Source: Candidatus Aenigmatarchaeota archaeon (lineage in GTDB: Archaea; Aenigmatarchaeota; Aenigmatarchaeia; Aenigmatarchaeales; JACQIB01). From it: 14,168 bases of DNA. The notes below the pieces were generated by a model, which was given only the letters and a program-made list of their open reading frames with translations, ran no database searches and was not told the DNA's origin. Numbering within the stretch: position 1 is the stretch's first letter; every line of letters begins with the position of its first letter. The DNA lies in contig JBHIDR010000020.1 in assembly GCA_046760225.1 (NCBI GenBank), forward strand, positions 1 through 14,168, given 5' to 3'. Made by a program: the position numbers and the translations under genes. Of the stretch, positions 4,582 to 8,976 are shown piece after piece.

Positions 4582-4757
4582 TTAAAATCGATGAAAAAGA
4601 GTATGAGCTTGCATGCAAGGCAATGAGGGAGATAGAGCTAGCTAACGACTCATGGGAGAACCTGAACTTTCCGGGTTATTTTTACCATTCAGGCAAGGCA
4701 ATGTACATCACATTGGTGGGGATCGCCTACGACATAAAGAAAGCGGTGAGAGGATGA
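4578..4757 (+). CDS. small hypothetical protein (59 aa) in the usual cmk position
   Basis: ATGA overlaps at both ends (rpl34e stop and rpl14e start) and an SD GGTGA upstream. Reads MIKIDEKEYELACKAMREIEL... Confidence 0.7.
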   Translation: MIKIDEKEYELACKAMREIELANDSWENLNFPGYFYHSGKAMYITLVGIAYDIKKAVRG

Positions 4758-5107
4758 TGGAAAGGGGCAGAGTGTGCATGAAGATTGCTGGCAGGGAAGC
4801 TGGCATGTACTGCGTAATAGTTGAAGAGCCTAAGGAAGGCTTTGTCATGATTACTGGACCGAAGAGCGTAACAAGGGTGAAGAGGAGGAAGTGCAACATC
4901 ATGCACATAGAAGTGACAGAGCACGTGCTGGACATAGGAAAGGGCGATGATGACTCTATTGAAAAGGCATGGAAATCATCCAATATGATAGAAAAGCTCA
5001 ATATTTCTTTGCCAAAAAAGAAGAAGGAAAGGAAGGAGAAAAGAGAAAAGCCCAAGAGAAAGCGGAGGAAAAAGGCCAGGCCCAAAAAAGTTGAGGCAAG
5101 AAAATAA
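4754..5107 (+). CDS. rpl14e: 50S ribosomal protein L14e with Lys/Arg-rich C-terminal tail
   Basis: GRVCMKIAGREAGMYCVIV...VMITGPKSVTRVKRRKCNIMHIE. SD GGTGA precedes ATG 4754/4757. Confidence 0.95.
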   Translation: MMERGRVCMKIAGREAGMYCVIVEEPKEGFVMITGPKSVTRVKRRKCNIMHIEVTEHVLDIGKGDDDSIEKAWKSSNMIEKLNISLPKKKKERKEKREKPKRKRRKKARPKKVEARK

Positions 5108-5133
5108 ATAGAATAACGCCCATTATTTCTCTA

Positions 5134-5421
5134 ATGACAAAGGCCAAACAACCTTCTCTGCGTGCTACACTATTCGGTATCTCAGATGAAAACACCACCC
5201 TTATGAAATATATCAGACTGGCTCAGCCGCTCAGTGAACCTGAGCATCTGAAGTTAATGTTGGGGGCAGCATCCAAATTCGATGGTTCTTTATCTGCTTT
5301 GAAAGGATGTGAACAGCGACTTGAAACAGAAGATAAAAAGGAAAAGATAGTTAGAGATTATAAGGCCTATATGCTGCATCCAGATATGGTTGGAGTATCA
5401 ATTAGGCACAATAAATGCTGA
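5134..5421 (+). CDS. hypothetical protein (possibly the N-terminal half of a frameshifted gene)
   Basis: 95-aa ORF that overlaps the next ORF in the +1 frame. No family recognised. Confidence 0.5.
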   Translation: MTKAKQPSLRATLFGISDENTTLMKYIRLAQPLSEPEHLKLMLGAASKFDGSLSALKGCEQRLETEDKKEKIVRDYKAYMLHPDMVGVSIRHNKC

Positions 5422-5815
5422 TTTACCAGAAAGGAAGGAATCTTCGCAAACAGTTTATCTTAACAGTTTCAACGCCTGGACAGACAATACAGAAAAAGTA
5501 ATAGACGAGCTTGCAATGAGATATTCTGCTAAAGGAGGGAACGTTTATCCCAGGCGCAATCTTACTTATGATGAAATCAGGGCATGTGCATTAGCATCTG
5601 GAATGAGTGAAGAGGAATTTTCTGGAGGCATGGATGTTGCCCCTGATACTGAATATATAGTAATGGGCGGTCTTGTAGAAAGGATAGTTGATGGTAAAAA
5701 GGTTATGGTCCAATCATATGATATCACTCCAGATGTTGCCAAATCATTGGACTGTCTTATGTGGCTATTAAAGATGGAGCCAAAACCTAAAGAAGTTTTA
5801 CCAAGACATTATTGA
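5390..5815 (+). CDS. hypothetical protein (possibly the C-terminal half of a frameshifted gene)
   Basis: 141-aa ORF with a TTG start and no obvious SD. Its frame is open from 5351. Confidence 0.5.
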   Translation: MEYQLGTINADLPERKESSQTVYLNSFNAWTDNTEKVIDELAMRYSAKGGNVYPRRNLTYDEIRACALASGMSEEEFSGGMDVAPDTEYIVMGGLVERIVDGKKVMVQSYDITPDVAKSLDCLMWLLKMEPKPKEVLPRHY

Positions 5816-5850
5816 CAAATGTTTCAATTTCTTTCATATAATTCTATGCA

Positions 5851-5977
5851 GCCTCCTTCGCTTTTTCCGCAGCTACCGCTCAGTTCCTTCTTAAGCCTCG
5901 CTGCCCTTCGGGCCGCTTCGCTAGCTCGGCTAAGAGGAACCTTCGCTAAAACGCTGCTCAAAAAAAGCTTCGGAGGT
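5851..5977 (+). repeat. long imperfect GC-rich inverted repeat / structured element with TTCG-type bulges
   Basis: Nested pairs: GCCTCC 5851-5856/GGAGGT 5972-5977, GCTTTTT 5860-5866/AAAAAGC 5962-5968, GCAGC 5869-5873/GCTGC 5953-5957, GTTCCT 5883-5888/AGGAAC 5935-5940, CTTA/TAAG, GCC/GGC, and an apical GCCC-TTCG-GGC. Confidence 0.8.
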
Positions 5978-5983
5978 GTTTAT

Positions 5984-7483
5984 ATGAAGCTCCCAGAAAA
6001 TTTATATCATACTAAACTCAATAGTAAATTTAGGAGAACCATGAATATAAAAAATAAGGTGTTTTACAGGGAGATAATTCATCCAAATATCTTGCAGGAA
6101 TTTTTGAAGCTAGAGAAGCCAATAATGGTCTTTGAGACAGAAATCAATAATGTCGATAAGAGTGCTTTCGCAACCTTTCTGGCCAAGCAGAGAAAGGAGG
6201 CAAAGATTGAAATAGGTAGCATTGTGCTTTTCAGGGCAAAGAAGAACAAAAAGACTTTTGAGTTCACTTCCAAATTGGGAAATTGGGGGAAATTCCATAT
6301 TCCAAAGGAACTTGTTGAAACATTGAGAATCAAAAACCATGAAAGAATTGTTTTTGAGACTATCGCAAAGAACTCCAAACCGATTCCGAGGGCGCAACCT
6401 ATAGATTTAGCCGATATTACAAGTATGGATAGCAGACTAAAAATTATATTACGCCCAAAAGGGTTTGTAACCATATGGAAAAAAGCGCATACACCTATAA
6501 CCGTGCCTAGATTCCTAGAACCTTCAGAGGATTTATTTGTTTTTGCTTACTTAATGCATGGAGATGGGCATTATAAAAGTAAATTTTTCTTCTCTAATGC
6601 TAGTTATAGATTGCATAGATTCGTTATGGAAAAGTTCGAAGAGATATTTACTCTCCCTAAAAATATGTGGAGGTGCAGGGTTTCCCATCATAAAGAGGAT
6701 CCAGCTGTTAAAATTTACTGGAAGAAGGCACTTGGTTTTAGCGAAGAGCAATTCTACCCAAAAATATCAAGGACACGCTTCGGAATGTTAAAGCGTGGTA
6801 ATGCAAGAACAACAATTGATTATAAACTCGTTGCTACTGTCTTCCGATTTGTCTTTGGCAAACTGAATGACATGATTGATGAAGGCAATGCTTTGCATGC
6901 GCTCGATGGCATACTAAATGCAGAGGGTAGTGCTGGCATATACAAGAATGGCCTTCACAAGTTAACTATATCCTTTAGTCAATCTGAGAAGGATATGTTT
7001 GCAAAAATATTGAGAAAGTGTGGATTTCTAGGGTTATGTAATTGTTTGAATGATAGGTTTGTAATGGGAGACTGGAATAATTTCTATCAGCTCATAAGGA
7101 AATTTCATGAGAACAGGCTTGTGCCCTTTAGTCAAAATCCTGTGAGAAGCGCAAATGTCGTTAATGGTCTCTTAAATCATAGATATACTAAAACTATTAC
7201 AAAATACTTGAAAGCTATAGATGATGATGGACGTACATTTGCCGAAATAGCCAAAGGATTGGGTCATAAAAGGGCGTCTGTTGCCAAGGAACTGAGAAAC
7301 AAGAGATTTGATGATTTTATTAAAATAGAAGGTAGAGGCATAAACAGAAGCCCTTTAAGAGTTTCTATCTCTAAAGAGGGTCTGGGATTTTTAGAAGTTA
7401 TTAAGTGGTTGGAGCAACAACGTCCAATCATAAATAAACTATTAATTGAAGATGAACAACTTGAAAGGAGGTGGATAAGCTGA
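5984..7483 (+). CDS. free-standing LAGLIDADG-like endonuclease with N-terminal AbrB-like and C-terminal winged-HTH domains (499 aa)
   Basis: SD GGAGGTG (5972-5978) precedes ATG 5984. AbrB-like FTSKLGNWGKFHIPKELVETLRIKNHERIVFE; LAGLIDADG-like motifs FAYLMHGDGH and ALDGILNAEGS; HTH-like RTFAEIAKGLGHKRASVAKEL followed by ISKEGLGFL. Confidence 0.72.
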   Translation: MKLPENLYHTKLNSKFRRTMNIKNKVFYREIIHPNILQEFLKLEKPIMVFETEINNVDKSAFATFLAKQRKEAKIEIGSIVLFRAKKNKKTFEFTSKLGNWGKFHIPKELVETLRIKNHERIVFETIAKNSKPIPRAQPIDLADITSMDSRLKIILRPKGFVTIWKKAHTPITVPRFLEPSEDLFVFAYLMHGDGHYKSKFFFSNASYRLHRFVMEKFEEIFTLPKNMWRCRVSHHKEDPAVKIYWKKALGFSEEQFYPKISRTRFGMLKRGNARTTIDYKLVATVFRFVFGKLNDMIDEGNALHALDGILNAEGSAGIYKNGLHKLTISFSQSEKDMFAKILRKCGFLGLCNCLNDRFVMGDWNNFYQLIRKFHENRLVPFSQNPVRSANVVNGLLNHRYTKTITKYLKAIDDDGRTFAEIAKGLGHKRASVAKELRNKRFDDFIKIEGRGINRSPLRVSISKEGLGFLEVIKWLEQQRPIINKLLIEDEQLERRWIS

Positions 7484-8456
7484 ATAAAAGGAAATGGTTG
7501 ATAAGATCTCATGAAGTTTCGCTGCCTGAATACGGAAAATATCCTGGGGCAAGGACAGACGAGGAGATGCTCAAGAACGGCATAATAATTCTTGACAAGC
7601 CACCAGGACCAACATCACATCAGGTGGATGTCTGGATAAAGGAGATTATTGACGTGCACAAATGCTCACATGGTGGGACCTTAGATTTTAGCAGGTTGAT
7701 ATAACACTGTTATATAAAGGAAATCCCCGTGTGAGTGGAGTTTTAATACTTGCTTTGGAAAACGCCACAAAGCTCATGCCTATTCTTCTTTCCAGCAGAA
7801 AGGAATATGTGGCCCTGATAAACCTCCACAGGGAGGTGGAAGAAGGCAAGATTAAGAAGGTGCTGCAGAAGTTCAGGGGAAAGATAAAGCAGCTTCCACC
7901 AAAAAAGGCTGCTGTTGCGCGGCGTGTGCGCGAAAGGGAGATTTATTATCTTGAGGTTCTTGAGATTGACAAAAGAAACATTCTTATAAAGGTTGGTTGT
8001 GAGGCAGGCACATACATAAGAAGGCTGGCTGATGATGTTGGTAAGGAGCTTGGTATTGGCGCACACCTGCAGGAGCTGAGAAGGACCAAGAGCGGCACAT
8101 TTACAGAGGAGCAAACAGTGAAAATGCAGGATGTTGTTGATGCTGTGGCTGAAGACAGGATAAGGGATATTGTGCTTCCAATGGAGAGTATAGTTGAAGA
8201 TATAAGGAGTGTTGTGATAAAAGACAGTGCTGTTGATGCAATATGCAACGGCGCTCCACTGAGTTCAGGCGGAATATCAAGACTGGAGGAAGGAATAGTG
8301 AGAGGTGAGTGGGTAGGCATCCTTACGCTCAAGGGAGAACTGGTTGCAATTGGCAAAGCTACCATGAACAGCAAGGACATGAAAAGAAAGAAGGGAATAG
8401 CAGTAAAAACAGACAGGGTGCTTATGAAGAAGGGAACCTATCCTAAGATGTGGTAA
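7471..8456 (+). CDS. cbf5: H/ACA RNA-guided pseudouridine synthase Cbf5, spliced: join(7471..7684,7723..8456), 315 aa
   Basis: Exon 1 has GIIILDKPPGPTSHQV...HGGTLD. Exon 2 has PRVSGVL...KEYV...QLPP...GTYIR...QELRRTKSG and a PUA domain (VIKDSAVDAICNGAPL). Removing 38 nt gives 948 nt in frame. The start could be GTG 7471 or CTG 7480. Confidence 0.95.
7685..7722 (+). other. 38-nt BHB mRNA intron within the catalytic Asp codon (G|AT) of cbf5
   Basis: Exon helix GGGA 7675-7678/TCCC 7724-7727; central helix CCTT 7679-7682/AAGG 7717-7720; bulges AG|A 7683-7685 and AA|A 7721-7723. Internal hairpin ATATAAC-ACT-GTTATAT at 7699-7715. In-frame TAA at 7702-7704 if unspliced. Confidence 0.93.
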
Positions 8457-8976
8457 GTTTCTCTATTATCTTGTCTGCTACTTGTTCTGCTGTAAGGTTT
8501 GATGTGTCAATAACCATGTCTGCTTCTTTTTCAAGGTCAGAAGGTGTAAAACCATAAATCCTTTTGAAATTCTTTCTTTCTAGTTCCTCTTTTTCCTTTA
8601 GTTGTCTGAGCGCTGTTTCATAGTCTATTCCTTCTTCTCTTTGCGTTATTCTCTTTGCTCTTACTTCTATTGCTGCCTTTAGCCATACCTTTAGGTCAGC
8701 TTTCTTTACAAACCTGATTGAGAGCTTTCCATCTATCACTATGTTGCCCTTGTCTGCAAGCTCTTGCTGTTTCCTGTCTATTTCCTCATGGAATGACTTG
8801 CTTGAGCCCTTTTCTGTTCTCCAGACATCCACTGCTGCTTTTGTCTCCTTTCCTGCTCCATGGGACTTGAAGAATTTTCCAGGTGAGAAATAACCGATGC
8901 CCAATTTTTCAGAAACAAGCCTTGACACTGTGCTTGTGCCGCATCCTGGCTGGCCGGATATCACTATAACTGGCAT
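8443..8976 (-). CDS. cmk: cytidylate kinase (archaeal type)
   Basis: IVISGQPGCGTSTVS P-loop, IDRKQ, NIVIDGKLS, ADLKVWLKA...RAKRI..RE, RIYG, DMVIDTSNL. Confidence 0.92.
   Translation of the reverse strand: MPVIVISGQPGCGTSTVSRLVSEKLGIGYFSPGKFFKSHGAGKETKAAVDVWRTEKGSSKSFHEEIDRKQQELADKGNIVIDGKLSIRFVKKADLKVWLKAAIEVRAKRITQREEGIDYETALRQLKEKEELERKNFKRIYGFTPSDLEKEADMVIDTSNLTAEQVADKIIEKLTTS

Follow-up and report, generated by a model that had tools for sequence, protein, structure and literature searches.

Introduction

Desulfurococcales and Sulfolobales reportedly carry an intron in the pre-mRNA of cbf5, an observation credited to Watanabe et al. in 2002. Yokobori et al. 2009 (PMC2738675) place this crenarchaeal intron between the first and second base of the catalytic Asp codon and give its length as 16-44 bp; on nucleases, the same paper considers only that the intron is too short to encode one. 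As introns of archaeal protein genes, a 2023 review (PMC10485636) names that of cbf5, limited to a small set of related archaea, and that of one Haloferax gene; it states that splicing at the cbf5 site has been found by experiment in Sulfolobus. The cut is made at a motif of the bulge-helix-bulge (BHB) kind, and the two-subunit type of splicing endonuclease accepts non-canonical motifs as well, according to PMC5829648. Here we describe the known kind of cbf5 BHB intron in a lineage outside its published range, as one of many such cases: it occupies positions 7685-7722 of contig JBHIDR010000020.1 (C20 of genome G000), whose entire 14,168 nt make up the window. The literature searched, judged from titles and abstracts, gave no report of a cbf5 intron in DPANN archaea.

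This element shares with its crenarchaeal counterpart the gene and the position after the first base of the catalytic Asp codon, an outer helix made of exon codons, a 4-bp helix in which exon 1 pairs with the intron's 3' end, and two 3-nt bulges. Its 38 nt fall within the published 16-44 bp, and the predicted endonuclease of the host is of the two-subunit type. Unlike it, the host is a DPANN archaeon, outside Desulfurococcales and Sulfolobales and far from Crenarchaeota; the intron is patchy in the class, with a genome of the same genus lacking it, and a free-standing LAGLIDADG-type gene lies just upstream. The initial annotation had already placed the intron at the crenarchaeal site, and this stands: the junction G7684|A7723 fits the rule given in PMC2738675, and a Sulfolobaceae locus (L066) has a 32-nt cbf5 insert in the same place and with the same layout. 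What is shared with the crenarchaeal intron is position and layout only; the introns are too short and too constrained for a phylogeny of any common descent.

The genome is a bin of 0.85 Mb in 83 contigs, 83% complete. Its host is a tiny vent archaeon of the DPANN group with relatives among Candidatus Aenigmatarchaeota, and is non-crenarchaeal, as first suspected: of 16 related records, nine are labelled Candidatus Aenigmatarchaeota, six 'uncultured archaeon' and one Sulfolobaceae. The window context, with ribosomal proteins, secY and a long-form adk, is archaeal.

Results

A 38-nt insert splits the catalytic Asp codon of cbf5

On the forward strand of the window, cbf5 appears as two open reading frames (ORFs), 7471-7704 and 7731-8456. 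The initial annotation took them for one gene, and Pfam domains on both exons agree: DKCLD on the first (E 7e-12), TruB_N, TruB_C_2 and PUA on the second. Exon 1 runs from a provisional GTG start at 7471 to the first base of the catalytic Asp codon at 7684; exon 2 covers 7723-8456 and is 71% identical to the same-genus genome G001 over 244 aa. Excision of 7685-7722 joins G7684 to A7723 and restores both the Asp codon and the frame. The resulting Cbf5 of 315 aa has the catalytic motif and is 72% identical to the uninterrupted Cbf5 of G001. Because A7685 and A7723 are the same letter, cutting after 7684/7722 gives the same product as cutting after 7685/7723, and the intron may equally be written 7686-7723.

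Left in place, the insert brings a TAA stop at 7702-7704, five codons past the Asp. The TruB_N match of this cbf5 is the only one in the assembly; as the unspliced message would give only a 77-aa fragment, the sole TruB-family gene of the assembly would therefore depend on splicing. The 38-nt boundaries set by the BHB, the bases involved, the restored codon and the early stop are all as the initial annotation had described them. A homologous 38-nt intron is found in a metagenome locus (L114). Within G000, blastn detected no second copy of the intron, the match being limited to a 17-nt palindrome, and Rfam had no family at gathering score within the window.

The insert is real at the DNA level. 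Four DNA runs of a single hydrothermal-vent study have Logan contigs in which the 38 nt are present, with no indel and no joined form, and this excludes the assembly artefact once considered for them. Two of these runs, possibly the source of the bin, gave contigs of 22,913 and 12,693 nt that are identical to the window over 7300-8500. The remaining two represent different samples; there, an 826-nt contig over 7372-8197 shows no difference, and a 1,521-nt contig over 7537-8500 shows three substitutions and no gap.

The BHB structure is under selection

The whole structure spans 7665-7735 on the forward strand. GGGA at 7675-7678 pairs with UCCC at 7724-7727, and CCUU at 7679-7682 pairs with AAGG at 7717-7720 to form the central helix. 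The bulges are AGA at 7683-7685 on the 5' side and AAA at 7721-7723 on the 3' side, with an inner hairpin within the intron. The outer helix, formed exon to exon by 7665-7678 with 7724-7735, is strong (12-13 bp). The helices and bulges of the earlier description are thus kept, with three amendments: the outer helix is longer than was stated, as 7665-7673 pair with 7727-7735, the 5' side is relaxed, and the cut is ambiguous by 1 nt.

Folded as RNA, 7665-7737 reaches -27.0 kcal/mol versus -13.8 ± 2.7 kcal/mol for 200 dinucleotide shuffles, none of which is as stable (z -4.85). When the strict BHB with its two 3-nt bulges is forced, the energy is -24.9 kcal/mol, 2.1 above the minimum-energy fold.

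For covariation we pooled 14 junctions from genomes of the class, one from Sulfolobaceae and 36 from metagenomes; 51 were parsed, 43 are distinct, and all have the same layout. The sequences being related, the covariation and pairing figures are descriptive and carry no probabilities. Among the 43 distinct junctions the central 4-bp helix is paired in 171 of 172 cells; 1000 shuffles of the partners gave 151.2 on average and 159 at most. Its second pair is U-A in 24 junctions, C-G in 17, A-U in one and U-G in one; its third is C-G in 30, U-A in 12 and a C·A mismatch in one. From these double compensatory changes it follows that, where the Thr and Leu codons differ synonymously, the intron has changed to match. 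In 37 of the 43, the 3' bulge reads AAA. The outer helix is nearly invariant across junctions and uninformative for covariation; the exons themselves, in register, form 13.0 of 18 possible pairs in intron-bearing alleles versus 9.0 of 18 in 47 distinct intron-less ones. Altogether, the covariation and the co-adaptation of the exons show that the BHB structure is under selection.

The genome encodes an endonuclease and a ligase

The splicing endonuclease of G000 is encoded by two EndA genes on contig C2 (PF01974 twice), of 163 aa and about 177 aa, which correspond to the two halves, N- and C-terminal, of a 350-aa EndA model with two units. Each has the N- and C-terminal EndA domains, and the two genes lie at C2:22790-24355 (locus L001, 238-729 and 1270-1803), with a nitroreductase-like ORF between them. 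At the position that we take to be catalytic, His is present only in the second of the two.

The gene of the RtcB ligase is found on contig C35 and is itself split, by a 32-nt insert at C35:1646-1677 (locus L067). This is a second protein-gene BHB intron in G000: the motif is clean, with a UAGG/CCUA central helix and a 7-bp inner helix, and removal of the insert restores the GGIGYDINCG motif. Nop10 is encoded as well; Gar1 was not found in the 83%-complete assembly.

As a separate observation on the same genome, ARAGORN in intron mode returned only 21 tRNA genes, 13 of them intron-bearing, the introns being in some cases oddly placed or sized. G000 thus seems to have many tRNA genes that carry non-canonical introns or were missed.

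Inserts at the Asp codon are patchy and widespread in the class

The presence of the intron was read directly at junctions, tblastn alignments running through short in-frame inserts. The open-frame screen of the class misses in-frame inserts that have no stop; it is uninformative in the second order, where 20 junctions were read directly.

In the host's own order, cbf5 is interrupted in 3 of 30 loci: in the present genome (38 nt), in G027 (15 nt) and in G024 (30 nt). That of the same-genus G001 is uninterrupted, and nine further genomes of the order have long open cbf5 frames. Across the class a cbf5 match exists in 319 of 371 genomes, and 12 genomes have short open frames among the 150 matches listed. 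Ten of these 12 are interrupted: G124 and G216 by 15 nt, G072 by 13 nt, G044 by 12 nt and all six genomes of genus g65 by 12 nt each. The second order contributes one 30-nt insert (G330) among 18 assessable junctions.

In total, at least 14 species-level genomes in seven families of the class have inserts of 12-38 nt at the Asp codon, a count that is a lower bound, about 150 weaker class matches lying outside the junction reading. A further 36 metagenome loci are interrupted at the same codon by 13-44 nt. The survey of relatives envisaged by the initial annotation thus finds a patchy intron, and of its two alternatives the much wider distribution is the one that the data bear out; any single occurrence may have been gained independently, transferred or inherited from old. 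In four metagenome loci (L115, L123, L139 and L141) the cbf5 match breaks off near residue 174 and is taken up again 1.3-1.5 kb downstream, which suggests a second large insertion, possibly an intein, beside the mini-intron.

A divergent LAGLIDADG-type gene lies upstream on a 2.36-kb insertion

The intron lies 200 nt downstream of an intact, free-standing gene of homing-endonuclease-like, LAGLIDADG type (5984-7483, forward strand, 499 aa; its frame is open from 5819). An AbrB/MazE-like domain forms the N-terminal part of the protein and a winged helix its C-terminal part; the central part between them has two LAGLIDADG-like motifs, L.HGDGHY and L.G.L.AEGS. In an alignment of the protein with 10 close relatives (A1), D194 and E314 never vary; following I-DmoI, we take them to be the putative catalytic acidic residues.

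Neither Pfam nor NCBIfam gave a direct LAGLIDADG match for this protein at E up to 0.1, and a single one of the 10 close relatives matches PF14528 (E 0.09). A profile of the close relatives finds 148 cluster representatives. PF14528 (LAGLIDADG_3) is present in 33 of 69 distant full-length representatives (best E 1.7e-10), some of them with MazE/AbrB and winged-helix domains, and hhalign aligns the A1 and A2 profiles with the motifs in register (probability 100%, E 1.4e-43). Given the PF14528 matches of these intermediates and the motifs, the product is therefore read as a divergent single-chain LAGLIDADG protein, a putative nuclease with two extra DNA-binding domains. In the PDB, the profile matches 2glw over the N-terminal part (E 0.008) and is otherwise weakly AbrB-like and MarR-like; the single protein sequence had no match there. 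Atlas feature matches all fall on LAGLIDADG_3 clusters, with scores of 0.82-0.87 that are below the counting score, and serve as a lead only.

The intron-encoded LAGLIDADG proteins of archaeal rRNA introns, of the I-DmoI type, likewise consist of a single chain with two motifs and GDG/AEG acidic residues, and are associated with BHB introns. The present gene differs in lying outside the intron, in its extra AbrB-like and winged-helix domains and in having no direct Pfam match.

The ancestral upstream neighbour of cbf5 is rpl14e (4652-5107, forward strand), recognised by a weak Pfam Ribosomal_L14e match and by its homologue beside cbf5 in relatives. It abuts cbf5 in G001, about 49 nt apart, and stands directly upstream of cbf5 in several other relatives. 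In the window the two are separated by an insertion of 2.36 kb (5108-7470, forward strand), absent from G001, which holds the LAGLIDADG-type gene and two small overlapping ORFs, 5134-5421 (95 aa) and 5390-5815 (141 aa). The small ORFs have no Pfam match and no homologue in the loci of relatives or metagenomes, and none of the three ORFs of the insertion has a homologue in the cbf5 loci of 29 relatives.

Elsewhere, G000 has 20 LAGLIDADG_3 matches at E ≤ 1e-8 (e.g. C9:16146-17066, and on C8, C18, C14, C15 and C46), and the same-genus G001 has none. Most lie in very long open frames and are likely inteins; a few are free-standing. The free-standing LAGLIDADG gene on C9 has no split neighbour gene. 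Further upstream in the window, within the ribosomal protein cluster, an isochorismatase-family gene (746-1231) stands between rpl30 and rpl15.

The gene and the intron are plausibly linked

The LAGLIDADG-type gene shows presence/absence polymorphism at a syntenic locus. It is absent from 366 of the 371 class genomes, and no close homologue exists in the 370 genomes other than G000: four have weak matches, three on contigs apart from cbf5 and one (G110) in a genome with no cbf5 match. A profile scan of metagenome contigs gave 52 loci, of which 43 have enough flank to be assessed. In all 43, cbf5 adjoins the gene. In 36 of them (29 of 35 distinct sequences) an insert breaks the Asp codon of cbf5, a proportion that stands without a gene-free control from the same lineages. 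One predicted protein, P0007, is a gene-caller fusion of the LAGLIDADG-type gene with cbf5 exon 1 that ends right after the Leu codon.

Comparison with L114 separates the histories of the two genes. The endonuclease-type proteins are 81% identical versus 63% for Cbf5 (72% with the Cbf5 of G001). In 90-nt windows of DNA, the endonuclease gene is 73-87% identical (about 79%) and exon 1 61-66%, with a drop at the gene boundary; the LAGLIDADG-type gene therefore has a history of its own.

We take gene and intron to be linked, most likely as an endonuclease gene that is mobile and an intron breaking up a DNA site that is conserved; such a two-part cassette is plausible but unproven. More specifically, the two could be halves of one selfish element: the endonuclease would cut intron-less cbf5 at the invariant codons of the catalytic motif, and the BHB intron would split and so shield the site. 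Such a target would be unable to mutate, as it encodes the active site, and the exon codons there would already supply half a BHB. The present intron would in addition have acquired its perfect copy of an operator-like palindrome known across the order. We put this proposal forward tentatively, at somewhat less than even chances. Weighing against it are the seven of 43 gene-bearing loci in which cbf5 is uninterrupted (in three of them, of two distinct sequence types, the sequence directly behind the Asp is unusual); the 13 other intron-bearing genomes of the class that lack the gene; and the lack of a co-conversion signal, as exon 1 identity is not raised between the window and L114 and is not unusual relative to G001. 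Simple homing is further disfavoured by the absence of an arrival scar, the sequence upstream of the endonuclease gene holding no repeat of the beginning of cbf5 (best E 0.1), and by the state of the metagenome copies: all 52 are intact, with no stops, even beside uninterrupted cbf5, in a sample biased by loci having been found via the motifs. Near the intron-bearing cbf5 of other class genomes, no remnant of the endonuclease gene was found within the flanks examined.

Several of these observations would be expected if the protein were instead a domesticated DNA-binding or regulatory protein, and the intron old, vertically inherited, often lost and unrelated to homing. The intact metagenome copies, the two extra DNA-binding domains, the absence of both co-conversion and scar and the 13 class genomes with the intron and no gene all point that way, as does the identity to the window copy across distant hosts, 31-43%, which is about that of Cbf5 (33-51%). 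Against it, the gene is missing from nearly the whole class, the four remaining matches being weak; it sits on an insertion that the same-genus genome lacks; its 81% identity to the L114 copy drops sharply at the boundary with Cbf5, at 63%; and its putative catalytic acidic residues are kept. We judge this origin possible, at about one chance in four.

The proposal of a selfish element finds a parallel in the collaborative or trans homing of phages, as described in reports on F-CphI with the psbA intron (PMC6083498) and on T4 mobE (PMC2790892). There too an intact endonuclease-type gene lies outside an ORF-less intron and beside the gene that bears it, the insertion point falls in the most conserved coding DNA, and the endonuclease-type gene is polymorphic for presence. 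The differences are a protein-spliced BHB intron instead of a group I ribozyme, an archaeal host, and the expected co-conversion of the intervening exon, not seen here.

A palindrome recurs inside the intron and at other sites

The core of the cbf5 intron is a perfect palindrome, ATATAAC-N3-GTTATAT, at 7699-7715 (no strand assigned). Exact copies number five in G000 versus none in each of 20 Markov simulations. In the order, the exact palindrome occurs in 24 of 42 genomes, with 1-6 copies each; a reversed control pattern occurs in three genomes, with one match each. Besides the intron, sites in G000 are C6:21393, C11:7759 and 7876, C13:1073, C26:1504 and 2898, and C55:3168. The other copies that were checked are all intergenic, and most have a TATA-like box a short way downstream. 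Found next to these copies are a 128-aa HTH/Cys-rich regulator (in four genomes), ThiI, a class-V aminotransferase (IscS-like), LigT, an NYN protein, orc1/cdc6 and ProRS.

The palindrome looks like the operator of a regulon of RNA modification and processing, and its presence in the intron may place the binding site of a regulator inside cbf5. The L114 intron has no perfect palindrome. The copies were also considered as parts of tRNA introns, a candidate that we rejected: no tRNA or other real Rfam match was found around the other copies.

Discussion

We conclude with high confidence that 7685-7722 is an archaeal BHB intron in cbf5 pre-mRNA. In the proposed mechanism, the exon codons flanking the catalytic Asp would pair as the outer helix and the last bases of exon 1 with the 3' end of the intron as the 4-bp helix, presenting two 3-nt bulges to a splicing endonuclease encoded as two alpha-beta-like genes. 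This enzyme would cut both bulges and RtcB would join the exons, restoring the Asp codon and the frame.

The substrate invites comparison with the relaxed BHB or bulge-helix-loop tRNA introns that (alpha-beta)2 and epsilon2 endonucleases cut, according to PMC5829648: both combine a strict 4-bp helix and 3-nt 3' bulge with a relaxed 5' side, and in the 12-13-nt relatives of the cbf5 intron the 5' cut falls in a loop. The cbf5 substrate differs from those tRNAs in being an mRNA whose outer helix consists of protein-coding codons.

Some points count against this conclusion. Cleavage and ligation of the cbf5 pre-mRNA are inferred here from DNA. The endonuclease looks like the two-subunit (alpha-beta) type, its competence and subunit arrangement being predicted from the gene sequences. 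Inside the 5' bulge the helix is weak: one or two weak pairs precede a stable hairpin, which leaves this side of the motif somewhat relaxed; in the minimum-energy fold, the clean 3-nt bulge is replaced there by an internal loop of 2 nt and 1 nt. Finally, the assembly being 83% complete, a second intact cbf5 could lie on unassembled DNA.

That cbf5 is a pseudogene, broken by a random 38-nt insertion, would agree with an unspliced frame that stops after 77 codons, with the reduced genomes of DPANN archaea and with Gar1 not being found in the incomplete assembly. This is very improbable: the exons are both undamaged and show 72% identity to the uninterrupted orthologue, the length and position of the insert exactly restore frame and motif while forming a BHB, the same codon carries covarying inserts in 43 distinct sequences, Nop10 is kept, and no other TruB-family gene was found in the assembly.

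Equally improbable is a split gene whose 77-aa and 241-aa polypeptides, the latter from the GTG at 7731, are made separately and assemble as in the split genes of Nanoarchaeum. The GTG-started ORF 7731-8456 does exist, and the unspliced frame of exon 1 by chance reads Asp at the right place. The inserts of relatives, at 12-16 nt and with a stop, provide no start codon for a second piece; the split would cut the catalytic loop, and neither the BHB nor the exon-exon helix, nor the covariation that involves the intron's 3' end, is explained by it.

In gene 60 of phage T4, ribosomes bypass an insert with no RNA splicing, and a free-standing endonuclease gene lies alongside; that arrangement resembles the hairpin-forming insert with an early stop beside an endonuclease-like gene seen here. 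Bypassing is the least credible of the three explanations: no matched take-off and landing codons are seen around 7684/7723, the conserved features are those of a BHB (4-bp helix, two 3-nt bulges, A-rich 3' bulges), the genome encodes an endonuclease and a ligase, and PMC10485636 states that in Sulfolobus splicing at this very site has been found by experiment.

Protein-gene introns have been treated as an archaeal rarity; the cbf5 intron, with its relatives of 12-44 nt, occurs in DPANN archaea too. Gene callers will give cbf5 there as two fragments or, as with P0007, as a fusion with the upstream gene. To this the present analysis adds that the structure is under selection and that the tie to a mobile LAGLIDADG-type gene suggests a possible route of intron spread. 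The tight association of gene and intron makes it testable at the bench how non-coding, endonuclease-dependent introns reach the same codon in distant lineages. If the two are indeed halves of one selfish element, the occurrence of inserts at one and the same codon from Sulfolobales to DPANN would be explained, and a first concrete route of tRNA-type introns into archaeal protein genes would be given, by homing or as cleavage-resistant repair products.

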